From an uncultured Thermoleophilia bacterium (GTDB lineage: Bacteria > Actinomycetota > Thermoleophilia > UBA2241): 64,000 nucleotides of DNA. Shown in pieces: positions 8,272 through 56,154 of this stretch. Position numbers and translations under genes: made by a program. The notes under the pieces were generated by a model. The model was not told the origin of the DNA, did not search any database, and was given only the letters and a program-made list of their open reading frames with translations. Position 1 is the first letter of the stretch. Every line of letters begins with the position of its first letter. The stretch lies in NCBI GenBank assembly GCA_963702475.1, contig CAVPCT010000007.1:22202-86201 (forward strand), read 5' to 3'.

Positions 8272-8513
8272 GGTCCTTAACCTACCCCACGTCAGTCCTC
8301 GGCCCGGCGCGCCGGGCCGTGCGGCGTCGGAGCATCGCCCTCACCGCGCCGGGCCGTGCGCTGCGCACGCATCGCCCGCAACGTGCCGGCCCGTCCGTCG
8401 CTCTCACGCCGTCCCGGGGTTGACCCGGCGGCCTTCGGGTAGAACGCTGACAACGCGCGGTCCGTCTTCGTCGCCGCGCCCCCGTCCCGTCCTCGCGTCA
8501 CCGGAGGTCCGCC

Positions 8514-9554
8514 ATGCGCGTCGGCATGATCGCCCCGCCCTGGTTCCCCCTGCCGCCGCAGCGCTACGGCGGCATCGAGTTCGTGGTGAGCCTGCTCACC
8601 GAGGGGCTGGTGAAGCACGGGCACGACGTGACGCTGTTCGCCAGCGGCGACTCCCGTACCAAGGCCGACCTCAGCTACATCTTCGCGCGCGCGCCCTTCG
8701 AGCAGATCGAGAGCGGCGGCCACCTCGAGGTGGTGCACAGCTTGGCCGCCTACACGCAGGCGCACGAGTTCGACGTGATCCACGACCACGACGGGCTCGC
8801 CAGCAGGGCCATGGGCGCGCTGGTCCACAGCCTCATCGGCACGCCGGTCGTGGCCACGCTCCACGGACCGGCCGACGCCACCACGGTCGAGCTGCTGTCG
8901 TCGCTGCGCCACGACCTCGCCTTCATCGCCATCTCGGAGTACCAGCGCAACGGCTTCCCCGACCTGCACTTCGTGGGGACGATCCCCAACGCCGTGGACG
9001 TGGAGCACATGCCGTTCGAGACGCAGAAGGAGGATTTCTTCCTGTTCATCGGGCGCATGTCGGCCGACAAGGGCGCGCACAGCGCCATCGAGGTGGCGCG
9101 CCGCCTGGACGCGCGCCTCATCATGGCCGGAAAGGTCAACGAGGGGCCGGAGCGCGCCTACTACGCGGAGCGGGTCGAGCCGTTCCTCTCCGACCGCATC
9201 CACTTCCGCGGGGAGGTGGACCACGACACCAAGATGGAGCTGTACAAGCGGGCGCGCTGCACGCTGTTCCCCATCCAGTGGCCGGAGCCGTTCGGGCTCG
9301 TGATGATCGAGTCCATGGCGTGCGGCACGCCGGTGATCGCCATGCGCCACGGGTCGGTGCCCGAGGTCGTCGAGCACGGCCGCACCGGCTTCATCGTCGA
9401 CACCGTGGACGAGATGGTGGAGGCGGCGGGGCGCATCGACGAGATCGACCCTGCGGAGTGCCGCAAGGTGGTGGAGGAGCGCTTCGGCATCGACCACTTC
9501 GTGGCCCAGCACGAGGCCGCCTACCGACAGCTGCTCGGCGAGCAGCCGGCCTGA
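8514..9554 (+). CDS. Glycosyltransferase family 4
   Basis: PPQRYGGIE, FIGRMSADKG, EPFGLVMIESMACGTPV. Confidence 0.92.
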   Translation: MRVGMIAPPWFPLPPQRYGGIEFVVSLLTEGLVKHGHDVTLFASGDSRTKADLSYIFARAPFEQIESGGHLEVVHSLAAYTQAHEFDVIHDHDGLASRAMGALVHSLIGTPVVATLHGPADATTVELLSSLRHDLAFIAISEYQRNGFPDLHFVGTIPNAVDVEHMPFETQKEDFFLFIGRMSADKGAHSAIEVARRLDARLIMAGKVNEGPERAYYAERVEPFLSDRIHFRGEVDHDTKMELYKRARCTLFPIQWPEPFGLVMIESMACGTPVIAMRHGSVPEVVEHGRTGFIVDTVDEMVEAAGRIDEIDPAECRKVVEERFGIDHFVAQHEAAYRQLLGEQPA

Positions 9555-9585
9555 GGCGGCCCGGAACGCCCGGAAGGTCACACCG

Positions 9586-10995
9586 GTGAAGCTGCTCTAC
9601 GACGACGTCCACCTGATCGCCGACCCTCTGTACGGGTACCTGCGCATCTGCCTGTCGCGGGCCGGGGAGATCGCTGAGGCCGACGTCATCGACAACCCAT
9701 GGGTGCAGCGGCTCAAGCGCATCCATCAGCTGCAGAGCTCATGGTGGGTGTTCCCCACGGCCGAGCACAGCCGCTTCGCGCACAGCCTCGGCGCCATGCA
9801 TCTGGCCGGGCAGCTGGCGCGGCAGGTGCACCCCACGCTTGCCGAGGTCGAGCCCGGCACTCCCTCGCTGCCGCTGGTCGAAGAGACCCTGCGGCTGGCC
9901 GGGCTGCTGCACGACATCGGCCACGGCCCGTTCAGCCACTTCTGCGACGAGGAGTACTTCCAGCCCGTGTTCGGCATCGACCACGAGCAGATCTCGCAGT
10001 ACCTCATCGTCAACGAGCTCGGGGGGCTCGTCGCCGAACTGCGGCGGAGCCCGTCGGGTTCGTTCGCGCCCGACGAGGCGGTGGACCCCTGGCACGTTGC
10101 CTTCCTGGTGCGGGCGGAGGAGGGGGCGGGCGCCCCCGGCCAGGACGCCGGCCCCATCCCGCGCTGGGTCCGGCTGCTGCACCGCGCCCTCTCCGGCGCG
10201 GTCACGGTCGACAACATGGACTACGTGCGGCGCGACGCCTACATGTGCGGCGTCGCGCTCGGCCCCGTGGACGTCGACCGCCTCATCTACTACACGTTCT
10301 GCACGCCCGACGGGCTCACGTTCCACAAGCGCGCTCTCGGAGCGCTGCGCGCCTTTCTCAACGCCCGCTTCTACATGTACGAGAACGTGTACTTCCACCG
10401 CATAGGCCACGCCATCGACCTGCACCTGCACGAGATCTTCCGGCCGACCATGGAGCTCATCCTGCCGCGGAGCCCCCTTGACGATGAGGCGGCCTACCGC
10501 CGCCTCACGGAGTGGTCGCTGTTCACCAGCGTGGAAGCGTGGCTGGACGAGCCGCTGGAGAGCGAGAAGCGCGCCCTGGCGGAGCAGTGGCAGTCCATCA
10601 TCCACCGGCACGTGAAGTACAGCATGGTGTACGAGCATCACGTGGAGCGGCAGCAGCCCCTGCCCGCTGCCCGGGACATGACCCGCGAGGAGTTCCACGC
10701 CGCCATCGTGAAACGGCTGCCGGCCGCGCTGCGCGACCTGGAGTTCGTGGTGGACATCGCGTCACAGGACCCGCGGCCGCTCAACCCGCTCGTCGGACCC
10801 AAGCGTATCGCCGTGTACGACCCGGCCACCGACGCCATCGAGGAGCAGCTTCTCAGCGGCATCCTCGAGTTCGTGCCGGCCAAAGCGCACCTGTACCGCG
10901 TGTTCGCGGTGGGCCGGCAGTACGAGCGCGAGCTGGCGCTGGCCGCGCGGGCGGCGCTCGAGGAGGCCGAGCCGCCGAGCCTGGTCAACCTCTGA
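9586..10995 (+). CDS. HD-superfamily phosphohydrolase (SAMHD1/YwfO-like dNTPase)
   Basis: QRLKRIHQL, EHSRFAHSLG, LLHDIGHGPFSH, D.MDYV.RD, MYENVYFH. Confidence 0.88.
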   Translation: MKLLYDDVHLIADPLYGYLRICLSRAGEIAEADVIDNPWVQRLKRIHQLQSSWWVFPTAEHSRFAHSLGAMHLAGQLARQVHPTLAEVEPGTPSLPLVEETLRLAGLLHDIGHGPFSHFCDEEYFQPVFGIDHEQISQYLIVNELGGLVAELRRSPSGSFAPDEAVDPWHVAFLVRAEEGAGAPGQDAGPIPRWVRLLHRALSGAVTVDNMDYVRRDAYMCGVALGPVDVDRLIYYTFCTPDGLTFHKRALGALRAFLNARFYMYENVYFHRIGHAIDLHLHEIFRPTMELILPRSPLDDEAAYRRLTEWSLFTSVEAWLDEPLESEKRALAEQWQSIIHRHVKYSMVYEHHVERQQPLPAARDMTREEFHAAIVKRLPAALRDLEFVVDIASQDPRPLNPLVGPKRIAVYDPATDAIEEQLLSGILEFVPAKAHLYRVFAVGRQYERELALAARAALEEAEPPSLVNL

Positions 10996-11102
10996 GCTCC
11001 CGACCCGCGCGGCGCGGGCGGCGACCGGGGAGTGCCCGCACAGGACCACCGCTGTCGCAGGGGTCCGGGGCGCGAGCGGGTCCGGCTCTCTTGTCCGCGG
11101 GT

Positions 11103-12539
11103 TCAGCCGGGGTGCGTCATGGCCTCCGGCCGCACCCAGGCGTCGAACTCGTCCGCCGTGACGTGGCCGGAGGCCAGCGCGGCCTCGCGCAGGGTGAGGC
11201 CGCCGAGGTGCGCGCTGCGCGCGATGGCGGCGGCCTTGTCGTAGCCGATGTGCGGGCTGAGGGCAGTCACCAGCATCAGTGAACCCTCGAGGTGACGATG
11301 GATCGCCTCGAGGTCGGGCTCGATGCCCTGCGCGCAGAAGCGGTCGAAGGCACCCACGGCGTCGGCGAGCAGCTCGGCCGACTCGAGCAGGCCGTGCAGC
11401 ATCACCGGCTTGTACACGTTGAGCTGCAGGGTGCCCTGCGAGCCGGCGAACGCCACGGCCGCGTCGTTGCCGAACACGCGCACGGCGACCTGCGTGAGCG
11501 CTTCAGCCTGTGTGGGGTTCACCTTGCCGGGCATGATCGACGAGCCGGGCTCGTTCTCGGGGATGCGCAGCTCGCCGATGCCGCTGCGCGGCCCGGAGGC
11601 GTACAGGCGCACGTCGTTGGCGATCTTCATGAGGTCGCCGGCCAAGGTGCGAAGTGCGGCGCTGGCGTTGACGACGGCGTCGTGCGTCGACAGTGCCGCG
11701 AAGAAGTCGGGCGCGGGGTGGAAGGGACGGCCGGTGAGCTCTGCGATGTACTCGGCGGCGAGCTCGGCGAAGCGCGGGTGCGTGTTCAGGCCGGTGCCGA
11801 CGGCGGTGCCGCCGAGGGCCAGCTCGTGGAGGCCGGGCAGCGCGCGGTGTACCGTGTCCAGCGCCTGGTCGAGCTGCGCCGCCCAGCCGCCGATGACCTG
11901 GCCGAGCGTGACCGGGACGGCGTCCTGCAGGTGGGTGCGGCCGACCATGACGACGTCGGCGTAGCGGTCGGCCTTGACGCGGAGGGTGTCGCGCAGCTGC
12001 TCGACCGCCGGGACCAGGACGTCCTCGAGCACCCCTGCCGCGGCGATGTGCATGACGGCGGGGAAGGTGTCGTTGCTGGACTGCCCCATGTTGACGTCGT
12101 CGTTGGGGTGGATGGGCATCCGGCCAGCCGGCGCGCCGTTTTCACCGGCGCCGGCCGCAGGGCCCCCCGCCTCCCGCGCCAGTTCGTTGGCGCGCGCGGC
12201 GATCACCTCGTTGGCGTTCATGTTGGACTGGGTGCCGGAGCCGGTCTGGAAGACGACGAGCGGGAACTCGTCGTCCCAGCGGCCGTCGGCGACCTCCTGC
12301 GCGGCGCGTCCGATGAGGGCGGCGCGCTCGGGGGCGAGGAGCCCCAGCTCCTCGTTGGCGCGCGCCGCCGCGAGCTTCAGCACACCGAGGGCGGCGATGA
12401 CGGGGCGGCCCCAGCGGAAGCGCTCGACGCCTATGGCAAAGTGCTCCACGGCGCGCTGCGTCTGGGGGCCCCAGTAGCGGTCCGCGGGCACGCGGACGTC
12501 GCCGAGGCTGTCGTGCTCGATGCGCCAGTCGTCGCTCAT
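11103..12539 (-). CDS. fumC: Class II fumarate hydratase
   Basis: [47 protein letters not shown]. Confidence 0.95.
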
Positions 12540-13437: not shown

Positions 13438-13482
13438 TTGACACCCCGGCGCGCCTCACTAGAATGTCCCCACCCAGGTGGG
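13438..13482 (+). promoter_or_regulatory. Promoter of the mttB-mtbB operon with a downstream palindrome (candidate operator)
   Basis: TTGACA (13438)-16 nt-TAGAAT (13460); CCCACC-CA-GGTGGG at 13469-13482. Confidence 0.6.
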
Positions 13483-13526
13483 TAGAATCGCCGGATCGGC
13501 GGCCACCCGACACCCGAGGGGGCTCT

Positions 13527-14996
13527 ATGAGACGAAACCTGTTCGCGGGCCGGCGGCGCAGTGAGGGCGTGACCTTCGAAGTCCTCACCGGCGACGACCT
13601 GCGGGACATCCACGCCGGCACTCTGGAGGTCCTGGACCGCACCGGCGTGTTCGTGGAGGACGAGGAGGCCCGCGCCGTCTTCGCCGGCGCGGGCGCCGGA
13701 GTCGATGAAACGACGCGCGTGGTGCGCATCCCGCCGCGCGTGGTCGAGGAGGCCGTCCGCACCGCACCGTCCCAGGTGGTCCTGGCCGGCCGCAACCCGA
13801 AGAACGACATCGTCCTCCAGCCGGGCCGCGTGGGCTTCACCAACTTCGGCGAGGGCGTGAAGGTGGTCGACCCGTACACCGGCGAGGTGAGGGTGCCGAT
13901 GAAGGCCGACGTGGGCCTCACCGCCAAGGTCGTCGACTACCTCCCCAACGTGGACGTGTACGAGCGCGCCATCACCGCCATGGACGTGCCGCAGGACATC
14001 GCCCCCCTGCACCAGGCCGAGGCGTGGTTCACCAACACCTCCAAGCACGGCTTCATGGGCTCGGGCGACGGCTTCATCTCGGAGAAGCTCCTCGACATGG
14101 CGGCCGCCATCGTCGGGGGCCGGGACAAGCTGCGCCGCCGGCCCATCATCTCGTTCATCACCTGTCCCGTGAGCCCGCTCAAGCTGGTGCAGGACACCTG
14201 CGAGATCATCATGACGGCGGCCCGCGGCGGCGTCGCCGTCAACATCCTCAGCATGGCCATGGCCGGCGGCTCGTCCCCGGTCACGCTCGCCGGCACGCTG
14301 GTGACGCACAACGCCGAGGTGCTGGCCGGGCTCACGCTGAGCCAGCTCACGCAGCCCGGCGCGGCGGTGGTGTACGGCAGTTCCACCACCGCCATGGACC
14401 TCAGGCTCGCAGCCGCGTCCGTCGGCTCGCCCGAGTGTGGCCTCATCAGCGCCGCCGTCGCCCAGATCGCCCGCTTCTACCTGCTGCCCAGCTGGGTGGC
14501 GGGTGCGTAGGGCGACTCCAAAGTGGTCGATGCCCAGAGTGGCCACGAGAAGACCCTGACCGGCATGTTGCCGGCGTTGGCAGGCGCCAACCTGATCTAC
14601 GGTCTGGGGATGATCGAGTCGGGCATGACCTTCGACTTCGGCCAGCTCGTCATGGACGACGAGTTCGCCGGCCTCATCAAGCAGTGCGTCAACGGCATCC
14701 CGGTGAACGACGAGACGCTGGCCCTCGACGTGATCCACGAGATCGGGCCGTTCGGCGACTTCCTGAGCCACGATCACACCATGGCCCACATGCGCACCAC
14801 GTCGCAGCCTGCGCTCATCGACCGCCGCGTGCGCGACGAGTGGGCGGAGATGGGGAGCAGTACACTGCACGAACGGGCGCTCGCCAAGGCCCGCGTCATC
14901 ATCGAGACGCACGTCCCGGACCCGCTGCCGGACGGCGTGCCCGAGCAGCTGGCGGCGATCGTGGAGAGCGCGGGCGCCGCCGCGGAGGTGAGCTGA
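13527..14996 (+). CDS. mttB: Trimethylamine:corrinoid methyltransferase, pyrrolysine-containing (in-frame TAG 14508-14510, codon 328; 489 aa)
   Basis: ORFs 13464..14510 and 14523..14996 share one frame; junction LPSWVAGA-TAG-GDSKVVDAQSGHEKT is the MttB Pyl site; FTNFGEG, TLAGTLVTHNAEVL, YGSSTT, GSPE motifs. Confidence 0.95.
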
Positions 14997-16382
14997 TGGG
15001 CACCATTCGCACGAGGATGGGCGACGGCTACGTCGTGCATCTGACGCCCGGAGGAGCTCCGCGCCGACCTGGAGGCCGGCTGCGCCGAGGCGGTGAAGCG
15101 CGCCAAGGTGCCGCCTCTGGAGGAGAACGAGTTCGAGTACCTCTACGACCTGTTCGCCATGCCCCAGCCGCATCATGGGCGTGGAGCCGGGTCACGAGGT
15201 CATCCTGACCAAGGACGGCTCCGTCAACACGCTGTACTCCGCCCAGCTCTCGAGCGGGGTGGGCCTGCCCCTCTCCCGGGAGCAGGCCTTCCGCGTGTTC
15301 GAGCGCGCCTTCTGCTTCGACACCATGGAGATCGGCCACCCCGACTACTCGTACAAGGCGGTCAAGCCCATCGTGGCGCTCGAGGCGACCGGCGTGGAGC
15401 AGGCGCTGCTCACCACGATCATCCCGGTGTTCTACGGCGCCATGCCCAACTTCGGCCTGTACGCGCAGCCGGACGGGCCGTTTCCCAACCCGGCCGACCT
15501 GCTGCCGCGCGGCGAGACGCAGGCCGCGCGCGACGCGCAGATGGCCATCGCCGAGGCCTGCCGCGAGGACATGCTGTACGTGTCCAAGGCCATGGCCGAG
15601 GTCGGCGCCGACGGCATCAACTTCGACACCACGGCGTCCATCGGCGACGCCGAGTTCTACGCGACGCTGCTGACGGTGGAGGAGCTGGCCGAAGACGACC
15701 CACCTCGCCATCGAGGTGGGCATGGCGGCCGAGTTCGTCCTCGGCTTCCACGGCGAGGTGGAGTAGCAGGGGCAAGCGGCTCGCCGGCATGTGGCCTCAC
15801 CAGCAGGTCAAGGTGGTGGAGGAGGCCGGCGCGCACATCTTCGGGCCGGTCGTGAACACCAACTCGCGCAAGTCGGTCCCCTGGAACGTGGCGCGCTCGG
15901 TGACCATCGTGAAGGAGTGCTCGCGGGTCGCCGAGATCCCCGTGCACGCCAACGTCGGTATGGGCGTCGGCGGCGTGCCGATGTTCGAGGTGCCGCCGGC
16001 CGACGTGCTCACCAGGGCCAGCGCGGCCATGGTCGAGATCGGCCGTGTGGACGGCTTGTAGGTCGGCACGGGTGACCCGTACGGCATGTCGATGAGCCAC
16101 GCGCTCGCGTCGGGCATGGGCGGCATCAGGACCACCGGAGACCTGGTGGCCAGGGTGCAGCTCCACACCAAGAAGCGGCTCCCCGAGGCGAAGAAGTACG
16201 TGGCCGACAAGCTCCACGTGAGCGTGGACGACCTGGCCGACTCCACCGTGATGCGCGGCCTGCGCCAGGAGCTGGACATCGGCGTGATCACCGCGGTGCC
16301 CGGCGCCCGCAAGGGCATCGAGGCCAAACGCAACATCTCCGAATTGCTCGACGTGCCGGTGGCCTGTCTGAAGAGGCTGTAG
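14996..16382 (+). CDS. mtbB: Dimethylamine:corrinoid methyltransferase, pyrrolysine-containing (in-frame TAG 16059-16061); four +1 frameshifts near 15050, 15165, 15691, 15766, probably sequencing errors
   Basis: [88 protein letters not shown] follow MtbB in order; TGATG coupling to mttB. Confidence 0.92.
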
Positions 16383-16613
16383 AGGGACGGCGGCCGAGGT
16401 CGGCCGAGCCCTCATGCCCCAACGCGGGCGTGCTCGCCGCCCAGCGCGGCGAGCACGCCCGATCGGGTGCCGATCCTCGAGTGCATCGACTGGGCGCGGA
16501 TGGCCGGTTTGGCAAGGGCCGGCCCTCAGTGTGGTGGGTACCGAAGTCGAGCCTCCTGACGCCGTGCGCCGGCGGCGCACGAGGCGGCTGCCGGAGGGAG
16601 AGGAGAGTTGTCC

Positions 16614-18542
16614 ATGGGATTCAGGGCATCGGCGCTGGCGGCGCTACGAGGCGAGCTTCCGGAAGGGCTGCCGTACGCGCCGCGCCTCGACCTCTGGCAC
16701 ACGGCCCGCCTCGCCTCGGGGACCATGCCGCGCCAGTACGAAGGCGCATCCATCGAGGAAATCTGCCGTGCCGAGGGCTGGGGCATCTACCTGCTGACCG
16801 CCAGCTTCGTCGGCCTGATCTCCTCGGACGAGGCCATGGCGCAGAGCGCCCTCGGCCTCTACGCGCCGCCCGAGTGCGGCTACCGGCTTGCGTTCGGGGA
16901 CGGTGTCGGCATGACGTGGCGACGCCGCGGCGAGCTTCTCGATGTGGAGGCCGAGACGGACAGCGGCACACTGCACACTACGCTGAGCCACACCGCCGAG
17001 ATGCTGCGCAACGGGATCACGTATCCGTGGGTCTCGGAGCCTCTCGTCAAGAAGTTCAGCGACTGGCGCGTGGTCGCCGACCTGTTCCGCTCACTGAGGC
17101 TCGTTCCGGACCCGGAGACCTATCGCGGGGCTAGGCAGCGCGTCGGCGAAGACGGCGCCGTGATCTCGGCGGCCAGCGAGCCGGGATCCCCCATGCATCA
17201 CGTCCAGAAGCACTTCTTTCCCGGCACGGAGTTCTACCTGCTCTACAACGATCGGCGGGCGGAGCTCGAGGAGTTCGCGGCCGCCATCACGCCCTTCTAC
17301 GAGCAGCTGCTCGAGTTCTATGCGCGCGCCGACGTCGACGGTGTGACCTGGGGTGGCAACTTCGACGAGACGATCACGTACGCGCCCTTCTTCGAGGAGC
17401 AGATCCTGCCCTGGCTGCAGCGCGCTTCGGACGTACTCCGTCCGCGTGGCATCCCCCTGCTGACGCACTGCGACGGCGAGAACCGCGGGCTGATGGAGCT
17501 CATCAGGACATCCGGCATCGACGCCGCGGAGTCCGTCTGCCCGTATCCGATGACGGCCCTGACCCTGCGCGAGTATTACGAGAGCTGGGGTGACGACCTG
17601 TGCATCGTCGGAGGCATCCCGGCCGAGTACCTCATCCCGGAGCAGACGTCGATAGACGATCTCTCCGACTATCTGAGCTACCTGCTGCGCGCCGTGGCTC
17701 CCGGTCGTCGTTTCATCGCGGGTGTCACCGACGCCGTGCCGCCGGACGCCGACTTCGACCGCTTGCGACGCGTGCACGAGTTCTTCGAGGGCCGTGGGAG
17801 ACTGCCGCTCGCCGTGGGCCCGATGCCCGACATCTTCGGCGAACGCGCGGCGGCGACCGCTCCGCGGGCCGCGCCGGTCCAGGACGAGTTCATCGCGCTG
17901 GAGGCCGCCGTCCTCGCCGGTGACGAGGCCGGCGTCGCCGACGCCTGCCGGCGTCTGCTCGCAGCGGGACAGACGGGGCGGGCGATCCTGGACGGCGGCC
18001 TCATCCGCGCCATGGACGTCATCGGAGTGCGGTTCGCTGCTGGTGAGGCGTTCATCCCGGAGATGCTGCTCGCGGCTCGCGCGATGCAGGCGGGAGTCGA
18101 TGCGCTGGAGCGCGCGCTCGTCGACGAGGAGGGCGCCTCGCGGTCGCAGGGGTCGGTCGTCATGGGCACCGTGAAGGGCGACCTCCACGACATCGGCAAG
18201 GACCTCGTGGTCCTCCTGCTGCGTGGCGGCGGATTCGACGTAGTGGACCTCGGCACCGACGTCCCGGTCGAGGAGTTCCTCCACGCGCTGCGCGAGCATC
18301 GGGCTCCGCTCCTGGGTCTCAGTGCCCTGTTGACCACGACCATGCCGCAGATGGCTCAGGTGATCGACGCTCTGGTCGCGTCCGGCGAGCGCGACCGCGT
18401 GCGCGTCATGGTCGGCGGTGCTCCGGTCACGGCACGCTTCGCCCGCGACATTGGGGCTGACGGCCACGGCTCAAGCGCCGGCGATGCGGTGACCGTCGCC
18501 CGCCACCTTCTGGCGGAGGTCCGTGGCGGGTCGCCGGAGTGA
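16614..18542 (+). CDS. Uroporphyrinogen decarboxylase-family (MtbA/MtaA-like) methyltransferase fused to a methylamine corrinoid protein
   Basis: N-terminal URO-D-type domain (GNFD, THCDG, GGIP); C-terminal cap MDVIG.RF..GEAFIPEML plus B12 motif GTVKGDLHDIGK and GLSALLTTTM, VMVGGAP; RBS AGGAGAG. Confidence 0.88.
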   Translation: MGFRASALAALRGELPEGLPYAPRLDLWHTARLASGTMPRQYEGASIEEICRAEGWGIYLLTASFVGLISSDEAMAQSALGLYAPPECGYRLAFGDGVGMTWRRRGELLDVEAETDSGTLHTTLSHTAEMLRNGITYPWVSEPLVKKFSDWRVVADLFRSLRLVPDPETYRGARQRVGEDGAVISAASEPGSPMHHVQKHFFPGTEFYLLYNDRRAELEEFAAAITPFYEQLLEFYARADVDGVTWGGNFDETITYAPFFEEQILPWLQRASDVLRPRGIPLLTHCDGENRGLMELIRTSGIDAAESVCPYPMTALTLREYYESWGDDLCIVGGIPAEYLIPEQTSIDDLSDYLSYLLRAVAPGRRFIAGVTDAVPPDADFDRLRRVHEFFEGRGRLPLAVGPMPDIFGERAAATAPRAAPVQDEFIALEAAVLAGDEAGVADACRRLLAAGQTGRAILDGGLIRAMDVIGVRFAAGEAFIPEMLLAARAMQAGVDALERALVDEEGASRSQGSVVMGTVKGDLHDIGKDLVVLLLRGGGFDVVDLGTDVPVEEFLHALREHRAPLLGLSALLTTTMPQMAQVIDALVASGERDRVRVMVGGAPVTARFARDIGADGHGSSAGDAVTVARHLLAEVRGGSPE

Positions 18543-40184: not shown

Positions 40185-40490
40185 TCAGCCCAGAGACTCG
40201 CGCACGATCTCGGGGTACCGGGTGGCGATGCGAATGAGCGCCTGCGCGGCGCCGGAGGGCGAGCGGCGGCCCTGCTCCCACTCCTGCAGCGTGCGCCTCG
40301 AGATGTGCAGCGCAGCTGCGAACTCCGCCTGTGAGAGGCCGATGCTCTGCCGCGCCTGAGCGACCTCGTTGGGCTCGACCCTGGTCGTCCGAGCAGCTTG
40401 GCCGGCCTTCATCTCGCGGACGGACTGCAGCAGCTTGACGCCCAGGTCCTCGGCGCTGCTCGGCGCTCCGTTCGGCTCAGTAGTTGCCAT
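40185..40490 (-). CDS. HigA2-like HTH antitoxin
   Basis: GLSQAEFAAALHISRRTLQEWEQGRRSPSGAA. Confidence 0.88.
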   Translation of the reverse strand: MATTEPNGAPSSAEDLGVKLLQSVREMKAGQAARTTRVEPNEVAQARQSIGLSQAEFAAALHISRRTLQEWEQGRRSPSGAAQALIRIATRYPEIVRESLG

Positions 40491-40797
40491 CTTCGAGCTC
40501 CCTCCGGATCTGTCTCAGGATGTGGCTCGGTATGTCGTCCTTCACCGTCTTCGGATACACAAGGAGCATCCAGATCTCCCCGGCGTGAAGCCGGGCGAAG
40601 TAGATGATTCGTGTACCGCCTTGCTTGCCGGCGCCGGGTCGCGACCACCTGACCTTGCGGCAGCCACCGCTGCCTGGGATGACGTGCCCCGGCTCCGGCT
40701 CGCCGGCGATCCAGGCGAAGAACTCCAAACGCTCGTCGTCGGACCACATGCGGGATGCTTCTTCCGCGAACGTGGGTGTCTCTACGATGGTGAGCAT
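40477..40797 (-). CDS. HigB2/RelE-like toxin
   Basis: MLTIVETPTF...GHVIPGSGGCRKVRW..GKQGGTRIIYF...LLVYPK. Confidence 0.88.
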   Translation of the reverse strand: MLTIVETPTFAEEASRMWSDDERLEFFAWIAGEPEPGHVIPGSGGCRKVRWSRPGAGKQGGTRIIYFARLHAGEIWMLLVYPKTVKDDIPSHILRQIRRELEDGNY

Positions 40798-40802
40798 GTC
40801 CA

Positions 40803-40830
40803 AGTATACGTCAATGACGTAGTTGCGCAA
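40803..40830 (-). promoter_or_regulatory. TA operon promoter with palindromic operator, probably leaderless
   Basis: TTGCGC-16 nt-TATACT, 5 nt before ATG; perfect TACGTCA-A-TGACGTA at 40807-40821. Confidence 0.75.
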
Positions 40831-41194
40831 CGCTTGCGTCCTGGGTCTCCTGCGGCGACCGTCACCTCGGAGGCGGTTCCTCCGGAGCGGCACGCCTGCA
40901 GTATCGGCTGTGGACAGAATGGGCGGAAGGGTTCCAATGGCTTGCTGTCCAGGTCCCGCCGGCATCGCTTCGCCGCAGGAACTGCGGCACGCAGCTCGCC
41001 GGCCTCCTCGGGGGCGCAGCTTCTGCTGCCGTTCCGGCTCTCTGCCGCACGATATCCTGAGTCAGCCTCCGTGCTACGTCTTGTCGCCTGTCCGAACGTT
41101 GACCGGCAGGACAATGTGCGGGTAGAATCGCATCTACGCAGTAGAATCGCCGGTCCCCGACTCGGTGGGCCGGACGACGGACGGGAGGGTTCCC

Positions 41195-42502
41195 ATGGAA
41201 GCGCGTGACTACCTGCGACAGAGGCTCGAGGTGTCGGCCGACGACCTCGCCGTGGTGAACGACTTCCTCACGTCGGACGCCAACCCGCTGATCGACCCGC
41301 TCCTCGACCTCGTCGAGCGGTACGGCGGCGTGGACGAGATCAACCGCAAGGCCGACGAGGCCGGCGAGCTCGAGAACCGCATGGCGCGCCTGCGCGCCGA
41401 GGGTTCTCCCTTCGTCGCCGGCCTGGAGTGGCTCATCGAGCAGCGCGACGCGGGTGCGTTCGTCACGCTGCCTGAGTATCGCCGCAGCGTGCTCGGCGAC
41501 GCGGCCGAGCCCATGACCTTCGACGACGAGCACGCGGTCACGCTCGAGATCAGCGCCCTGCAGTACTTCCCCTGGCTCATCGCCGAGGCCGAGCAGGCCA
41601 TCGAGCGCCGCGAGCTCATGCCCGGCCGCTACATCCGCGTGCGCAACATGGCCGAGCAGACGGCGCCGGGGGAGGACGTCCTGGCCGTCGCGGCCGCCAT
41701 GCAGATCATCGGCGCCAGTCACGTCGAGACGCTCGACACCAAGGGCATCGACGGCTCCAACGTGCACCTCGGCGGTCCCGATACCATCGCCGGCTACTTC
41801 GGCGGCATCGGCCAGCCCAACGACTACCCGCTCAGGTGGGCCGACGAGTACCTGCGCAACCTCACCGAGTACGGCATCCGCCAGGTGCTCAACATCAACA
41901 GCGGTACGATCCTGGTCGCCATGCTGCTGCACAAGCTCGGCGTCCGCAACGAGTTCAAGGTGTCGGTGTTCATGGGTGTGGACAACCCTTGGTCGGTGCT
42001 CTGGCTCCTCATGGGCGCGCGGCTCTTCGGCGCCGAGCAGGGGACGACCGGCATGGCCGGCCTCAACCTGTCCAACTCCGTCGACGCCGACACCATCCGC
42101 GAGTCGTCCGCCGTGCGCCGGGCCTTCGGTCTCGAGCAGGACGTCCGTTTCGAGCACCACATCACGGAGGCGTACAGGTCCATCGTGCGCCAGCCGTACC
42201 TGCGCCGCGCCGAGCTGCTCGAGATCGCCGCCGACGTGCCGAACATCTCGGCCAAGCACGAGGGCGGCGATCCGGACGTCGAGGCCACGCGCGACCATCC
42301 CAGCGACCTCTTCGACTACTTCGTGCCCAAACAGCAGCTTCTGGACGGCGGGCTCATGCCGGTGCTCGAGCAGAACTACCTGGACAAGCACGAGGCGGTC
42401 TGCCGCACCGCCGCCGAGCTCACGCGCGCCGGGATCGGCGTGCACGCAGCCGCGCTGCTGCACGCGCCTCACGGGGTCGTGGTCGGCGCCGGCGCCGCCT
42501 GA
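41195..42502 (+). CDS. Hypothetical soluble protein (435 aa), function not recognised
   Basis: Strong G/C-ending codon bias, RBS GGGAGGG, TTGACC/TAGAAT promoter upstream. Confidence 0.8.
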   Translation: MEARDYLRQRLEVSADDLAVVNDFLTSDANPLIDPLLDLVERYGGVDEINRKADEAGELENRMARLRAEGSPFVAGLEWLIEQRDAGAFVTLPEYRRSVLGDAAEPMTFDDEHAVTLEISALQYFPWLIAEAEQAIERRELMPGRYIRVRNMAEQTAPGEDVLAVAAAMQIIGASHVETLDTKGIDGSNVHLGGPDTIAGYFGGIGQPNDYPLRWADEYLRNLTEYGIRQVLNINSGTILVAMLLHKLGVRNEFKVSVFMGVDNPWSVLWLLMGARLFGAEQGTTGMAGLNLSNSVDADTIRESSAVRRAFGLEQDVRFEHHITEAYRSIVRQPYLRRAELLEIAADVPNISAKHEGGDPDVEATRDHPSDLFDYFVPKQQLLDGGLMPVLEQNYLDKHEAVCRTAAELTRAGIGVHAAALLHAPHGVVVGAGAA

Positions 42503-51005: not shown

Positions 51006-53073
51006 ATGGTCACGGTCAAGGTGGATCCGGCACGCTTCGCGCGCCTGCTGGACCCGCGCTCGATCGCCGTCTTCGGCGGCGCGCAGGCTCAGGAGGTCAT
51101 CAAGCAGTGCGACCTCATGGGCTACGACGGGGAGATCTGGCCCGTGCACCCCAAGAAGGACGAGATCATGGGGCGTGCGGTGCATCGCTCGGTGGACGAG
51201 CTCCCCGGCAGCCCCGACGCGGCTTACGTCGGCGTGAACCGCAACCTCACGATCGACATCATGCGCGGCCTCTCCGCGCTGGACGCCGGCGGCGCGGTCT
51301 CCTACGCCACCGGGTTCGCCGAGGCTGGAGAGGAGGGCGCCGAGCTCACGCGGCAGCTGCTCGAGGCCTGCGGCGACATGGTCCTTGTCGGGCCCAACTG
51401 CTACGGGCTGCTCAACTACGTGAGCGGGGCCATGCTCTGGCCCGACCAGCAGGGGGGCAAGCGGGTCGAACGTGGCGTCGCCATCATCACGGCGTCGTCA
51501 AACGTGGGCTTCAACCTCACCATGCAGCGCCGCGGCCTGCCCATCGCCTACATGGTCTCGCTCGGCAACCGCCTCAAGCTCGACTTGCACGACGCCATCG
51601 AGCTCTTCGCGCGCCAGGAGCAGGTCACTGCCATCGGGCTGTACCTGGAGGCGCTGCCCGATCCGGCCACGTTCCAGCGCGCGGTCGACGTGGCGCGCGA
51701 GCTCGGCAAGCCCGTCGTCGCCATCAAGACGGGACGCTCGCAGGTGGCCCAGCAGGTGGTCATGTCCCACACGGCTTCGCTGGCCGGTTCGGACGAGCTG
51801 GTCGACGCGCTGTTCGCGCGTCTCGGCGTGGCGCGCGTCGACTCGCTGGAGGCGCTGATCGAGGCGCTCAAGGTGCTGCATGTGCTCGGGCCGCTGAAGG
51901 GCGGGCGCATCGCCGCGATGAGCACCTCCGGCGGGGACCTCACGCTGCTCGCCGACGCGCTCAAGCCGGGGCTGACGCTGCCGCCGCTCTCGCCGCAGGC
52001 GACGGAGCGGCTGCGCGCGGTCGTGCACGAGCGCGTCGTCCCGTCCAATCCCTTCGACTACCAGATGTTCTCGTGGGACGACGACGACGCCAACGCGGCC
52101 ATCTTCGGCGCGCTGCTCTCGGACGACTTCGACGTCGCCCTGTGCCTGCTCGACTACCCGCGCGCCGACAAGTGCGACCAGTCCACCTGGGGCGGCGCGG
52201 AGCGGGGCTTCGTCCGCGCCGCCAACGCCACCGGCACCAAGGGCGCCGTCATGGCGACGTTCTCCGACACCTGCTCCGAAGCACGTAGCCGAACGTCTCA
52301 TGGAGGACGGCGTGGCCATGCTCGCGGGCATCGACGGCGGCGTGGCGGCCGTGAAGGCGGCCTGCGACGTCGGCGCCGCCTGGGCGCGGCCGCCGGCGCA
52401 GCCGCTCCTCACCGACCCCGGCCGCGTCCCGGGCGCGGTGGACGTCCTCGACGAGGCCGCGTCCAAGGCCGTGCTGGCCGGGCATGGCGTCCCCGTCCCG
52501 GCCTCACGCGTGGCGCACACGACCGAGGAGGCCGTCGCCGCGGCCGAGGAGCTCGGCTATCCCGTGGTGGTCAAGGCTCTCGGCGTGGCGCACAAGTCGG
52601 ACGTGGGCGGGGTGCGTCTCGACCTGCGCAGCGCGGAGGAGGTCGCTGAGGCGCTCGACCTCATGGCCGGTCTCTCCGAGTCGTACCTCGTCGAGCGCAT
52701 GGTCGAGGACGCCGTGACCGAGCTCATCATCGGCGTGACGCGCGACCCGCAGTTCGGTCCCTACCTGGTGGTCGGCGGCGGCGGCATCCTCGTCGAACTG
52801 ATGAAGGACAGTGCTTCTCTGCTGCTGCCGGTCACGAGGGAACACGTGCTCGAGGCGCTCGGCGCGCTGCAGTGCGCCCCGCTCCTGAACTGCTTCCGCG
52901 GGTGCCCGCAGGCGGACCTCAACGCCGCTGCCGACGTGGTCATGGCGGTGGCCACCATGGTGGAGAAAGACCCCGGGGCGGTCGCCGAGCTGGACATCAA
53001 CCCCCTGCTCGTGCTCGAGCAGGGCAAGGGCGCCGTGGCGGCCGACGCCCTGGTCAGACTGAACGCGGAGTGA
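51006..53073 (+). CDS. NDP-forming acyl-CoA synthetase (CoA-binding + ATP-grasp), +1 frameshift near 52280
   Basis: PRSIAVFG, GPNCYG, SHTASLAG, STSGG, NPFD; then GYPVVVK, HKSDVGGV, DPQFG, ELDINP in the next frame. Confidence 0.88.
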
Positions 53074-53078
53074 GGCAC

Positions 53079-54467
53079 ATGAGCAGCGACGGCCTGAAAG
53101 AGCGCATCATCGCCCGGGCGAAGGAGGAGGGGGCCGCGGCGGCCGGCATCGTCCGCATCGCCGATCTCAAGAACGCCCCATCGTACCCCGCCTACGACGC
53201 CGACCCGTTCTACCCCGAGTACGAGGGCGTGGAGTGGAAGGACGAGTTCGAGTCCATGCTGGTCTGGGGGCTGCCGCACCCGGCGGCCGAGCCTGTCCTC
53301 GACTGGTGGAGTCTCAAGGTCAAGGGCTTCACGCCGGGTAACCGCGAACTGGCGGCGCAGTCGAAGCGGCTGCGCGTCTGGATGAACGAAGAGCTCGGCA
53401 TGGGTGCGCTGTCCCTGCCCTACCAGATCGAGTACGGCGGCGCTTTTCTCAAGGACGCCGCCGTCCTCGCCGGCCTGGGCGTGATCGGCAGGAACAACCT
53501 CGTCGTGACGCCGGAGTACGGGCCGCGCATCCGCTGGCGCGGCATCTTCATGGCGGCCGACCTGGAGCCGACAGGCCCGCTGGAAGGGTTCGACCCCTGC
53601 ACCGGATGCGCCGAGCCGTGCAGGACGGCGTGCCCCAAGGTCGCCTTTGGCGGCGGCACGTTCGAGCGCTCTCTCTGCAAGCAGCGGCAGGACCAGCTCG
53701 ATGTGGACTTCGAGGTGATGGACGGCGCGGTGTTCGGCATCGAGGAGGCGGGCAACGTCACCGAGTACTGCCGCGTGTGTGAGCTGGCCTGCCCGGTGGC
53801 GCCGGACTACAGACACGCCGACGTCGCCGCGGCCGGGGAGGCCATCACCTCCGCCGACCAGACGGCGTTCGTCCTGTCCGACGAGCGGTGGGTGGCCTTC
53901 ACCGAGCTTCTCGGCGGCAAGTCGACGGTGATCCCGGCGCTCGCCGAAGCCGCCGCGTCCGTGGAGACCGCCGCCGACGTCCGCGCGCTTGCGGCCGCCG
54001 ACGACGTGGCCGCCTTCACCTGCGGGGAGCCGGCTCTGGACGAGTTCCTGGCGGAGCGCGCCCTGGCGGAGCAGCGCGCCGGCAAGACCCGGGTGCTGGC
54101 GCGCGACGGACGGCCGCTCGCCTACTTCAGCCTCAAGGCGGCGAGCGTGGGACCTCGCCCGGACACGAGGGTGCTTGCCGCCGGCAAGGGGCCTCGCGAG
54201 GTGCCGGCGGTCCTGCTGGCGCGTCTCGCGGTCGACAGCGCCGCGCAGGGTGCGGGTTTCGGCGAGGCGATGCTCCTCCAGGCCCTGAGCCGCAGCCTGC
54301 AGGCCTCCAGCACCATGTTCGCCCGGGCCGTGATCGCCGACGCTCCCACCGACGGGGCGCGAGGCTTCTACGAGAAGTACGGGTTCGTGCCGTGCCCGAC
54401 CGACCCGCGGCACCTGGTGCTGCGCATGAAGGACGTCCGCAAGAGCCTGACGCCGCCGGAGGAGTGA
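53079..54467 (+). CDS. Fusion of QueG/reductive-dehalogenase-like Fe-S domain, DUF1778-like peptide and TacT/AtaT-like GNAT acetyltransferase
   Basis: LKDAAVLAGLGVIGRNNL..TPEYG.R, CTGC..PC..ACP, CRVCELACP; ADQTAFVLSDERWVAFTELL; FTCGEPALDEFL, VPAVLLARLAVD..AQGAGFG, ARGFYEKYGF; one uninterrupted frame. Confidence 0.8.
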   Translation: MSSDGLKERIIARAKEEGAAAAGIVRIADLKNAPSYPAYDADPFYPEYEGVEWKDEFESMLVWGLPHPAAEPVLDWWSLKVKGFTPGNRELAAQSKRLRVWMNEELGMGALSLPYQIEYGGAFLKDAAVLAGLGVIGRNNLVVTPEYGPRIRWRGIFMAADLEPTGPLEGFDPCTGCAEPCRTACPKVAFGGGTFERSLCKQRQDQLDVDFEVMDGAVFGIEEAGNVTEYCRVCELACPVAPDYRHADVAAAGEAITSADQTAFVLSDERWVAFTELLGGKSTVIPALAEAAASVETAADVRALAAADDVAAFTCGEPALDEFLAERALAEQRAGKTRVLARDGRPLAYFSLKAASVGPRPDTRVLAAGKGPREVPAVLLARLAVDSAAQGAGFGEAMLLQALSRSLQASSTMFARAVIADAPTDGARGFYEKYGFVPCPTDPRHLVLRMKDVRKSLTPPEE

Positions 54468-54720
54468 CGGCCGCCGACGACGGGGCACGCGGCGGCGGGA
54501 CGCGGGGCCGGCCCCGCCGCCGCTCCCGCTCCCGACGGCCCTGCTCCGGCCGCCGCCCCGCCACCGCAGAGGCTCGCCCGCCGCCGCTCCGCCGCCGCAG
54601 ACGCCGCAGCTTGACAGCGGCGGAGCCCGCCGGAGAGAGTGTCCGCCGACTGACCGGTCGACCTGTTGTTCCTCGACGCGCGCGTGGACCGCGGCGCGAG
54701 GGGGCGAAAGGAGAGCTCAC

Positions 54721-56154
54721 GTGAAGTGCCGTCAGAGCTGGCTGAGCGCGAGCGAGCGCGACCTCATCATCGAGTCGGCCATGGCCGTGCTCGAGCGCGT
54801 GGGCATGGGCCTCAAGGGCGCGGCCATCCTCGGCCCACTGGAGGAGCGCGGCGCGCGGGTCGACCACGAGACCGGCATCGTGCGTATGCCTGAGGCCCTC
54901 GTCCGGGAAGCTCTGGCGAGCCTGCCGGAGACGATGGTGATGGCGGGCGCGACCGAGGCGCAGGACGTTGTCTTCGACAGGTGCAACGGTCCGCACTTCA
55001 ATCCGTCGGCCTGTATCGCGAAAACGCTCGACTTCCGCACCGGCAAGGTCAGGCCCTCCACCCTGCAGGACATCCGTGAGGGCTCCACGGTCATGGACGC
55101 CACACCCGAGCTCGATCTGATGTGGACGTTCGCGACGGCGAACGACGTCGCCGTGGAACGCCGCGAGTTGCAGGAGTACCACGCCTACCTCACCAACACG
55201 TCGAAGCCGCTGGTGTTCGTGGACTGCCCCGGTGAGACGGCGCCGGTGAAGCGCATCATGGAGGTCCTCAGCGGCAGCCTCGAGGCGCACCGTGAGCGGC
55301 CGCGGCTCGGGCTGCTTTGTGCGGTCCGCGCACCGCTCGAGGTGAACACCCGCCTGCTCGACGCCACCTGCGAGCTCGCGCAGGCCGGCATGCCGATCTT
55401 CGCCTACTCCATGACCATGCTCGGCGCCACGTCGCCGATCACGGTGGCCGGCACCCTTGCGCAGCTGTGGGCCGAGCTCCTGGGCATGGTCACCGTGGTG
55501 CAGACGGCTTCCCCCGGCACGGCCATGCTGCTCTGCTGCGGCCCCGGCATCCTGGACATGCGCACCGGCTCCATGTCACTGGGCTCACCGGAGAACACGC
55601 TCTTGGGGGTCGCCTCGGTGGAGATCGGCCACCACCTCGGTCTGCCGGTCCACAACTCCGGTCTCTCGAGCGACGCCAAGCACCCGGGACTGCAGGCGGG
55701 CTACGAGAAGGGCATGAAAGCCCTGCCGGCGGCGCTGGCCGGGGTCGACCTCATCAGCGGGGGCTTCGGCGCGCTCGACTCGTCGAGTGTGTGGCACCTG
55801 CCCATGGTGCCCATCGACGCCGAGGTGGCGCGGCTGGTCAAGCGTCTCGTCGCCGGCGCGGAGATCACGCCGGAGACGGTGATGCTCGACGTGATCGAGC
55901 GCGTCGGCGTGGGCGGCAACTACCTCAAGGAGAAAGTCACGCGTGAGCGCGTGCGCGCAGGCGAGCACTTCCAGCCGGTGATCGGCAGCCGCCTTCCCTT
56001 CGAGCAGTGGGTCGCGGAGGGCCGCCAGGAGCTGGACGAGGCGCGCGATATTGTTGAGGGTGCGCTGGCGGCCAGGGAGGCCGAAGGCGGCGGCTCGCTG
56101 CTGAGCGACGACCAGCTCGCCGCCCTGGCCGACATCTGCGGCGCCGCCGACTGA
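54721..56154 (+). CDS. MttB-superfamily methyltransferase without pyrrolysine (MtgB-like)
   Basis: GATSPITVAGTL, DMRTG...GSPE, LPVHNSGL-S-SDAK (Ser at the Pyl site), AGYEK; RBS AAGGAG; TTGACA at 54611. Confidence 0.9.
   Translation: MKCRQSWLSASERDLIIESAMAVLERVGMGLKGAAILGPLEERGARVDHETGIVRMPEALVREALASLPETMVMAGATEAQDVVFDRCNGPHFNPSACIAKTLDFRTGKVRPSTLQDIREGSTVMDATPELDLMWTFATANDVAVERRELQEYHAYLTNTSKPLVFVDCPGETAPVKRIMEVLSGSLEAHRERPRLGLLCAVRAPLEVNTRLLDATCELAQAGMPIFAYSMTMLGATSPITVAGTLAQLWAELLGMVTVVQTASPGTAMLLCCGPGILDMRTGSMSLGSPENTLLGVASVEIGHHLGLPVHNSGLSSDAKHPGLQAGYEKGMKALPAALAGVDLISGGFGALDSSSVWHLPMVPIDAEVARLVKRLVAGAEITPETVMLDVIERVGVGGNYLKEKVTRERVRAGEHFQPVIGSRLPFEQWVAEGRQELDEARDIVEGALAAREAEGGGSLLSDDQLAALADICGAAD

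Follow-up and report, generated by a model that had tools for sequence, protein, structure and literature searches.

The DNA analysed here is a stretch of 64,000 nucleotides (the window) from an uncultured Thermoleophilia bacterium (assembly GCA_963702475.1, contig CAVPCT010000007.1), in which a single open reading frame (ORF) on the + strand, running from an ATG at 53079 to a TGA ending at 54467, encodes a protein of 462 aa (P0001) made of three parts (Table 1). The N-terminal part (N-domain) is homologous to the QueG/reductive dehalogenase (RdhA) superfamily, the middle part to the toxin-binding arm of DUF1778/TacA antitoxins, and the C-terminal part to the GNAT toxins TacT, AtaT and KacT. 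This layout had been proposed in an initial annotation made from the DNA alone, and both the reading of the ORF and profile searches run segment by segment bore it out. The fused protein is found in public databases as "GNAT family N-acetyltransferase" (NCBI) or "epoxyqueuosine reductase" (JGI), names that both miss the three-part architecture.

Table 1. Position of the fusion gene, its parts and its flanking genes in the window.
Feature	Position	Strand	Remarks
Whole fusion ORF	53079..54467	+	462 aa plus TGA; 51 further full-length clusters, 60-88% identity
Shine-Dalgarno-like GGAGTGAGG	53067..53075	+	From sequence inspection; overlaps the stop of the upstream acyl-CoA synthetase gene (53071-53073)
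N-domain, residues 1-244	53079..53810	+	QueG/RdhA-superfamily core plus two-cluster ferredoxin part; without HEAT/tRNA-binding tail and without twin-arginine (TAT) signal
Eight invariant Cys, C174-x2-C177-x3-C181-x3-C185-P, C200, C231-x2-C234-x3-C238-P	53598..53795	+	Presumed ligands of two [4Fe-4S] clusters, predicted from sequence
Variable linker, residues 242-256	53802..53846	+	15-38 aa among family members; mean pairwise identity 0.34; dN/dS around or above 1
Antitoxin arm, residues 257-295	53847..53963	+	Homologous to the DUF1778/TacA/KacA C-terminal toxin-binding region (end of alphaB, betaB, alphaC, linker, alphaD)
Junction plus complete TacT/AtaT/KacT-type GNAT, residues 296-462	53964..54464	+	PDB alignments span about 302-457
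Acetyl-CoA-binding elements, A384 in R-L-A-V-D and Q390-x-x-G393-x-G395	54228..54263	+	A384 matches TacT A93
Y431 TAC codon, position matching TacT Y140	54369..54371	+	Tyr in the window copy
ADP-forming acyl-CoA synthetase gene, upstream partner	51006..53073	+	CoA_binding_2, Succ_CoA_lig, ATP-grasp_5; split by a 1-nt frameshift in the window
MttB-family methyltransferase gene, downstream	54721..56154	+	Same conserved operon

The antitoxin origin of the middle part was established by profile comparison. The 60-aa middle piece of the window copy fell below the threshold of the Pfam model TacA1 (PF08681), with E 0.029 and 14.8 bits versus a cut-off of 21, over profile positions 36-76 of 80, and 12 of the 52 full-length fused members in our sample (the window copy and the 51 clusters) matched this model at E<=0.1, the best of them at 8.6e-6. 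A profile of the arm made from nine genomic copies was aligned by hhalign to columns 47-90 of the 91 in a profile of five canonical antitoxins, with a probability of 97.9% and E 3.3e-13. Each of these five matches TacA1 (best 5.5e-25) and is encoded ahead of a GNAT toxin gene in a genome of the same class; one comes from the genome of the window itself. The DUF1778/TacA-like segment had initially been drawn at about 53853-53945, which is right to within a few codons. The canonical profile also aligned without gaps to residues 1-84 of KacA, in which, as reported in PMC6698736, the ribbon-helix-helix (RHH) domain takes up residues 5-51 and the betaB-alphaC-alphaD part (52-86) wraps KacT, impairing acetyl-CoA binding and dimerisation. 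The fusion thus keeps the toxin-binding arm and is without the DNA-binding half. The RHH is absent as had been annotated, given that both the Pfam and the hhalign matches begin in mid-antitoxin, and N-terminal of the arm there is just the variable linker and then the Fe-S domain.

Arm-only pieces are also found in toxin complexes of the PDB, namely a 39-aa "TacA1 antitoxin peptide" (7ak8_G, profile positions 54-84) and a 42-aa DUF1778 fragment (9ilr_B, positions 49-83), from which it follows that the arm alone suffices for toxin binding. In the fused family, the near-invariant arm positions F264, W271, F274, L278 and L288 are hydrophobic and common to the canonical antitoxins, and a near-invariant G-K/R-S turn is specific to the family; this turn would sit where the KacA linker nears the acetyl-CoA site. 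In the subclade of the window copy (P0001-P0004), the end of the arm is 6 aa shorter and the S-P-F motif is lost. Two further ideas about this segment were discarded: a Walker-A-like G-x4-G-K-S, whose first Gly (position 275) is present in 23 of the 52 members and whose Lys is Arg in 7, and acylation of K281, a position at which K/R exchange is tolerated.

The C-terminal part was matched above cut-off by three Pfam GNAT models. In a single-sequence search of the PDB, its 15 best matches were toxins of toxin-antitoxin (TA) systems or near relatives (E 7.6e-21 to 5.9e-9), with 7ak7 (7.6e-21) and TacT 5fvj (1.1e-16) at the top, and KacT and the 6ajm/6gt* AtaT set also among them. These alignments pair residues about 302-457 with chain residues about 12-164, so that the toxin is covered up to its end, starting at about residue 12, and the profile of the fused family reached E 3.8e-27 against PDB GNAT toxins; the description of a complete GNAT with TacT hallmarks is thus confirmed. 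The nearest free toxins are about 50% identical to the fused GNAT (P0178, 52%), and the genome of the window also carries a canonical TacA/TacT-type pair, the toxin of which is 43% identical to it. The acetyl-CoA-binding residues are conserved in the family, with Ala at position 384 in 50 of 52 members, Q390 in 50, G393 in 47 and G395 in 51. Other positions are newly invariant in the fused GNAT and differ from the free toxins: T412-M413-F414, of which the third position is Gly in 18 of 23 free toxins, as well as G335, P372 and K455. In addition, the fused GNAT has a mean net charge of -1.2 and a median pI of 6.3, versus +3.4 and 9.3 in the free toxins, which are basic. A PADLOC scan gave no match to a defence model.

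A particular pattern was found at the position of the catalytic tyrosine. Y431 of the window copy aligns with residue 140 of 7f36_A, which appears from its motifs to be a TacT sequence and has Phe there in that crystal construct; the KacT counterpart of TacT Y140 is Y145. The structure 5FVJ is of TacT Y140F, and PMC4942678 reports that Y140F and A93P each abolish toxicity and that purified Y140F does not acetylate tRNA. The 23 free toxins recovered in the representative search had Tyr in 22 cases and Cys in one at the matching position, and in the 52 fused proteins this position was Phe in 32, Tyr in 16 (the window copy included) and Cys in 4. When the 52 proteins were placed on a tree for which the column of position 431 had been blanked, six changes at this position were required; one clade of 29 members is all Phe, and the other clade holds 16 Tyr, 4 Cys and 3 Phe.

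The N-domain gave partial matches to two NCBIfam models, reductive dehalogenase (RdhA, TIGR02486; 31.2 bits against a cut-off of 160.35, residues 126-240) and QueG (TIGR00276; 21.5 bits against a cut-off of 200). A genome-wide profile search found no locus above the QueG cut-off in the genome of the window, the fusion locus scoring 21.7 bits. Searching the PDB by sequence matched residues 121-240 to QueG (5d6s, 3.7e-8) and PceA (2.4e-6), and a profile of 48 diverse stand-alone relatives aligned over positions 6-229 of its 231 to residues 28-273 of the 5d6s chain (E 6.9e-17), and also to three dehalogenase structures, RdhA 8q4h and 4ras among them. The alignment to 5d6s stops at chain residue 273 of 399, and in the fusion the linker and the arm come next. 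In QueG, the C-terminal domain past the ferredoxin part is HEAT-like and binds tRNA. From these alignments, the N-domain appears to comprise the whole corrinoid-type core plus the two-cluster ferredoxin part, and to end where the extra C-terminal domain of QueG starts. The eight Cys of Table 1 are invariant in the 52 fused members and also in all 48 diverse stand-alone relatives, and Fe-S clusters and a corrinoid would be the expected cofactors.

By these comparisons, the N-domain is a short member of the QueG/RdhA superfamily rather than an orthologue of QueG, within a widespread family of stand-alone proteins of 230-270 aa. Its family aligns with QueG and RdhA over their corrinoid-binding core and two-cluster ferredoxin part. 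It differs from both in being only 244 aa long and in its low scores to the family models, from QueG in lacking the C-terminal domain, and from RdhA in having no TAT signal, as no twin-arginine motif was seen on reading the N-terminus of the fusion protein. The link to tRNA that the initial annotation had drawn through QueG is not supported, since the N-domain scores far under the QueG cut-off, is without chain residues 274-399 and is encoded next to an ADP-forming acyl-CoA synthetase gene across several phyla.

A search of 5.8 billion proteins identified the 51 further clusters, of 456-488 aa and with 97-100% query cover, in sequences from ENA, JGI, NCBI and Logan. The same search also lists 62 stand-alone proteins of 254-281 aa that match the N-domain only (57-66% identity), and an exhaustive search of representatives at 50% identity yielded a single full-length representative (P0033). 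Full-length fusions were present in nine genomes (G020, G006, G005, G021, G354, G358, G380, G342 and G305) belonging to two genera of one family, and a contig search returned nine fused loci, eight with Thermoleophilia in their titles and one with "Actinomycetes bacterium", several of which are the same contigs as in the genomes just named. In a tree of the N-domain, the 52 fused and the 62 stand-alone proteins fell on opposite sides of one branch (SH-aLRT 94 and 88), with an outgroup of five distant homologues outside (support 97); this was a quick maximum-likelihood search, and the position-431 tree was likewise a quick search. The fusion thus arose once, and the fused forms make up one clade, sister to the stand-alone N-domain genes. 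The passage from N-domain to arm, for which a check of reads had been suggested at the outset, is spanned by contigs of three other sequencing runs (53579-53888, 53664-53900 and 53793-53943); among the listed contig pieces none crosses 53943-54054, a region of thin cover. Contigs over parts of the fusion gene also come from a run whose RNA-Seq label is a guess, which does not in itself show transcription.

Other protein architectures were also searched for. The C-terminal 218 aa, compared with longer proteins, retrieved the fused family only (19 matches at E<=1e-10 among 8000 scored candidates), which is weak evidence for its exclusiveness, and a protein-atlas search with the homologue P0020 gave only small stand-alone QueG-like clusters and acetyltransferases of about 170 aa, with no other architectures. 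A protein of 285 aa (P0223), in which an apparently whole antitoxin is joined to a toxin through an odd Cys/Arg-rich stretch, was taken as a frameshifted gene call. Broken copies of the fusion in G001 and G354 were rejected as signs of decay, as neighbouring genes are also frameshifted in both assemblies.

In the Thermoleophilia copies examined, the gene lies in a 2-oxoacid:ferredoxin oxidoreductase/acyl-CoA operon. The genes named by Pfam in the window are, in order, BKACE, SDR, thiolase, AMP-forming ligase, IorA, IorB, SDR, ADP-forming acyl-CoA synthetase, the fusion and the MttB-family methyltransferase, past which a divergent Lrp/AsnC regulator, an ABC transporter and a second MttB were found. 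Gene order from thiolase to MttB is the same in G020, G006, G021, G001 and G358, and partly the same in G354. Among the nine fused loci, the synthetase gene is directly upstream in eight, the ninth contig starting inside the gene, and an MttB orthologue is downstream in seven. In the window, 5 nt separate the stop of the synthetase gene (53073) from the start of the fusion, and the position of the Shine-Dalgarno-like site over that stop suggests translational coupling of the two genes. No promoter-like site was found in a scan of 52800-54900, which gave two weak terminator-like sites that were not above shuffled sequences, and an Rfam scan detected no riboswitch near the operon.

The same synthetase accompanies the stand-alone N-domain genes. 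It was located upstream and on the same strand in 34 of 39 stand-alone loci; of the remaining five, two had no synthetase in the 4 kb upstream and three were too short to tell. The hosts of these stand-alone genes include Desulfobacterales, Anaerolineae and other Chloroflexota, Thermoanaerobaculales, Sulfomarinibacteraceae and Myxococcota, and the pairing of the synthetase with a small (about 255 aa) QueG-like Fe-S gene is conserved across phyla, also in Acidobacteriota-type metagenome-assembled genomes and in Thermoleophilia, with unusually high identity (71-79% for the first part of the synthetase and 54-65% for the Fe-S protein). In a genome of the same genus (G072), the synthetase and a stand-alone N-domain gene occupy the same position with nothing TA-like behind them. 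As the stand-alone loci show this pairing without the TA piece, the N-domain belongs natively with the synthetase, and the TA piece was added to it. More distant stand-alone homologues (38-48% identical) are in unrelated gene contexts. A description of the gene pair was not found in the literature searched.

Three details of these loci were recorded besides. The synthetase gene of the window carries its 1-nt frameshift near 52283-52290, where G020 and G006 have one ORF of about 690 aa; it reflects an error of assembly or a genuine lesion. G020 has an insertion of about 2 kb between the fusion and mttB (L017 9419-11430), with an ORF of 408 aa (10039-11265) and part of a long frame (8156-10798), which we take to resemble aconitase-X-type proteins. 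Finally, the first gene of the cluster in the window (41165-42502, + strand), encoding 445 aa with a G+C content at third codon positions (GC3) of 0.95, had no Pfam match at E<=1e-5.

Selection on each part was estimated from nine intact genomic copies (36 pairs) by the method of Nei and Gojobori (NG86). The dN/dS ratio ranged from 0.10 to 0.37 in the N-domain and from 0.23 to 0.50 in the GNAT, and from 0.23 to 0.47 in the GNAT of the six genomic copies with Phe at 431. For the arm, of 35 codons, the values were noisy (0.22-1.35), and the linker exceeded 1 in every between-subclade pair, with 0.12-1.09 within the all-Phe group. Mean pairwise identity was 0.79 in the N-domain, 0.67 in the GNAT, 0.62 in the arm and 0.34 in the linker. 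Both the arm and the GNAT are under purifying selection.

These results show that a TacA/TacT-like pair of DUF1778 antitoxin and GNAT toxin was joined in one event to the 3' end of a small QueG/RdhA-superfamily gene. The fusion dropped the antitoxin RHH, retained exactly the toxin-gripping arm and turned the antitoxin and toxin frames into one. The canonical local antitoxins end in K-P-S-P-F plus 2-3 residues, overlapping the start of the toxin, and the fused family reads through this motif directly into the first toxin residues. In another genome of the same class (G026, L060 586-1365, - strand), canonical tacA and tacT are in one frame with a single TAG between them, where one substitution or stop read-through would give an antitoxin-toxin fusion. 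With genes that overlap, or that are one TAG apart as in G026, a point change or a small indel is enough for the merger. The RHH would have been lost in a second deletion, which brought the end of the Fe-S gene up against mid-antitoxin sequence.

With moderate confidence, we interpret the outcome as an exapted type II toxin-antitoxin module, in which a domesticated GNAT, clamped within its own chain, would now provide the Fe-S protein with acyl-CoA binding or a regulatory function. The arm would dock on the GNAT of its own chain, and therefore the GNAT would be unable to act as a free dimeric tRNA-acetylating toxin. The GNAT would retain its acyl-CoA pocket and no longer require the catalytic Tyr, and hence it would most likely be a module for acyl-CoA binding, regulation or scaffolding, or at most for slow acyl transfer. 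Because purifying selection and the acetyl-CoA motifs persist despite the loss of Tyr, the domain appears to be kept for its fold, its CoA pocket and the arm, and not for the catalytic Tyr. Through this module, the Fe-S protein may be tied to the acyl-CoA chemistry of the neighbouring genes, IorAB making acyl-CoA and the synthetase consuming it, and expression would be set by the operon instead of by TA autoregulation.

A more specific version is offered tentatively, as we consider it rather improbable: the arm and GNAT could be a metabolite sensor, in which acyl-CoA in the pocket competes with or repositions the tethered arm, gating electron flow through the corrinoid/Fe-S reductase or the binding of a partner, and the Tyr-retaining subclade with the short arm could still fire as a conditional tRNA-acetylating translation brake when acyl-CoA or redox balance fails.

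Several observations weigh against a domesticated, clamped module. Tyr is kept in the window copy and 15 others with intact acetyl-CoA motifs, and residual or conditional activity of the window copy, which combines this Tyr with a shortened arm, is possible; the loss of 6 aa at the end of the arm might loosen the clamp. The docking of the arm on the GNAT is argued from homology, and according to PMC5449658, TacT in its complex with TacA still acetylates a protein substrate, K44 of TacA, so that a bound arm need not silence all chemistry. To these are added the dN/dS of the GNAT, which is above that of the N-domain, the noisy values of the arm, and a probable underestimate of dS, as a GC3 above 90% probably depresses dS, so that the ratios are upper bounds.

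The same retained Tyr and intact acetyl-CoA motifs, in a complete TacT-type GNAT, are what a live single-chain toxin-antitoxin switch would need, that is, a tRNA-acetylating GNAT held off by its own arm and released by a change of state in the N-domain (cluster oxidation, cofactor loss or acyl-CoA level) or by proteolysis of the linker or arm. The arm is conserved, the flexible and fast-evolving linker would be a possible protease target, and fused TA systems such as CapRel have been described in the literature. We nevertheless consider such a switch unlikely, because Tyr is gone in 36 of 52 members through about six changes while the domain remains under purifying selection, the gene is fixed in a metabolic operon and vertically conserved over at least two genera, the GNAT is less basic than the canonical toxins and without a PADLOC match, and the loss of the RHH removed the usual regulatory logic. 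Of the two readings left side by side in the initial annotation, a self-inhibited toxin under redox or cobalamin control is thus the less likely one, and a domesticated acetyltransferase in a metabolic operon is favoured by the number of members without Tyr, the selection detected in the all-Phe clade, the new invariant residues and the less basic GNAT. A retargeted but active acyltransferase, with the arm as a structural element, seems more doubtful still. In Pat, a synthetase-like domain with the same domain set as the upstream synthetase is joined to a GNAT, and the fusion might function similarly, with a small-molecule amine, or a lysine in a neighbouring enzyme such as the AMP-forming ligase or the synthetase, as acceptor of the acyl group from a pathway acyl-CoA. 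The conserved acetyl-CoA motifs, the new invariant residues near the substrate side, the adjoining enzymes that make and use acyl-CoA (the synthetase with its CoA_binding_2, Succ_CoA_lig and ATP-grasp_5 domains) and the acetylation of TacA by TacT (PMC5449658) agree with this, but the Tyr that TacT catalysis requires is dispensable in most members, the arm would by homology occupy the region of substrate and acetyl-CoA access, and no acceptor was identified.

The faster evolution of the GNAT and arm relative to the N-domain, the relaxed catalytic Tyr and a stand-alone N-domain that evidently works without a TA part in other phyla could also be explained by a functionless passenger, a TA remnant fused by accident and carried as harmless. 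This is very improbable, as the arm-plus-GNAT frame is open in 52 of 52 members down to 60% identity, its GNAT dN/dS is well below the value of about 1 in the adjacent linker, many residues are invariant or newly invariant, the N-domain tree reveals no secondary loss, and the only broken copies (G001 and G354) are in the assemblies with frameshifted neighbours. An assembly chimera or a sequencing frameshift joining separate genes, for which the frameshift in the synthetase gene just upstream could have spoken, is refuted by the 51 other full-length clusters from several sources, by the identical junctions in genomes of two genera and by the bridging contigs of three other runs; the fusion is not unique to this assembly and, in agreement with the initial annotation, it is no simple indel artefact.

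Compared with the TacA-TacT, AtaR-AtaT and KacA-KacT systems, the arm and GNAT are homologous to the antitoxin C-terminus and the toxin, in an order collinear with the two-gene module. In contrast to them, the fusion is one polypeptide in a metabolic operon, behind an Fe-S domain and without the RHH and hence without DNA binding and autoregulation; the Tyr is dispensable in most members, and the GNAT has new invariant residues and is less basic. CapRel, which is compared here by its possible working and not by sequence, likewise holds a toxin and a neutralising segment in one chain, but it is described as a phage-sensing defence protein with a toxin of an unrelated family, whereas the fusion has a metabolic context, an eroded catalytic residue and no defence-model match. 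A parallel in evolutionary terms is offered by the TA exaptations summarised in PMC8987985, such as Cas2 from VapD-like toxins and antitoxins turned into transcription factors, in which a selfish TA part also came under purifying selection for a host function; those recruit a toxin or an antitoxin alone, whereas the fusion recruits an interacting arm-toxin pair welded to an enzyme. The initial annotation knew of no described example, and none of a DUF1778-GNAT fusion to a QueG-like protein was found in the literature covered, including the accessible text of a phylogenetic survey of GNAT toxins (PMC9177977), a TA census (PMC2701414) and the mobile-element exaptation review cited above, many subscription papers being outside this scope.

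Other features of the window and its genome were noted apart from the fusion. Rfam PYLIS elements were detected at 14508-14607 and 16059-16158 (region 13464-16559), assigned to mttB (64.9 bits) and mtbB (63.3 bits). Two ORFs called with translation table 11 end in TAG exactly at these sites, and with TAG read as pyrrolysine they lengthen, one from 348 to 510 aa and the other from 322 to 488 aa. PylS is encoded on contig C3 of the same genome (TIGR02367, 314.6 bits versus a cut-off of 178). These features seem to mark a Thermoleophilia genome that uses pyrrolysine; a tRNA gene was not detected in the window. In addition, the B12-binding domain PF02310 had 43 matches in the genome, many in ORFs of about 210 aa and one at about 18153-18488 of the window, which, together with at least two non-pyrrolysine MttB-family genes in the window (54721-56154 and another from 63038), suggests a very corrinoid-heavy methyltransferase metabolism. 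Finally, at 40188-40893 (- strand), a 101-aa protein with an Xre-type helix-turn-helix and weak similarity to MqsA antitoxin overlaps by a few codons a 138-aa ORF without Pfam match, and the two are candidates for a further toxin-antitoxin pair bordering the operon.

In most accounts, toxin-antitoxin modules figure as selfish or defence elements, and to our knowledge their clear recruitment into core metabolism is rare. Here, an interacting arm and toxin were captured as a unit, the DNA-binding and autoregulatory half was lost, and the rest was kept under selection while the catalytic Tyr decayed repeatedly. The finding also flags a widely distributed and unstudied pair, the ADP-forming acyl-CoA synthetase and the small QueG-like Fe-S protein. 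In the fused family itself, the Tyr, Phe and Cys variants and the full and shortened arms make up a natural series for asking to what uses the GNAT-toxin fold may be put and whether regulation within one chain by an antitoxin arm is possible.

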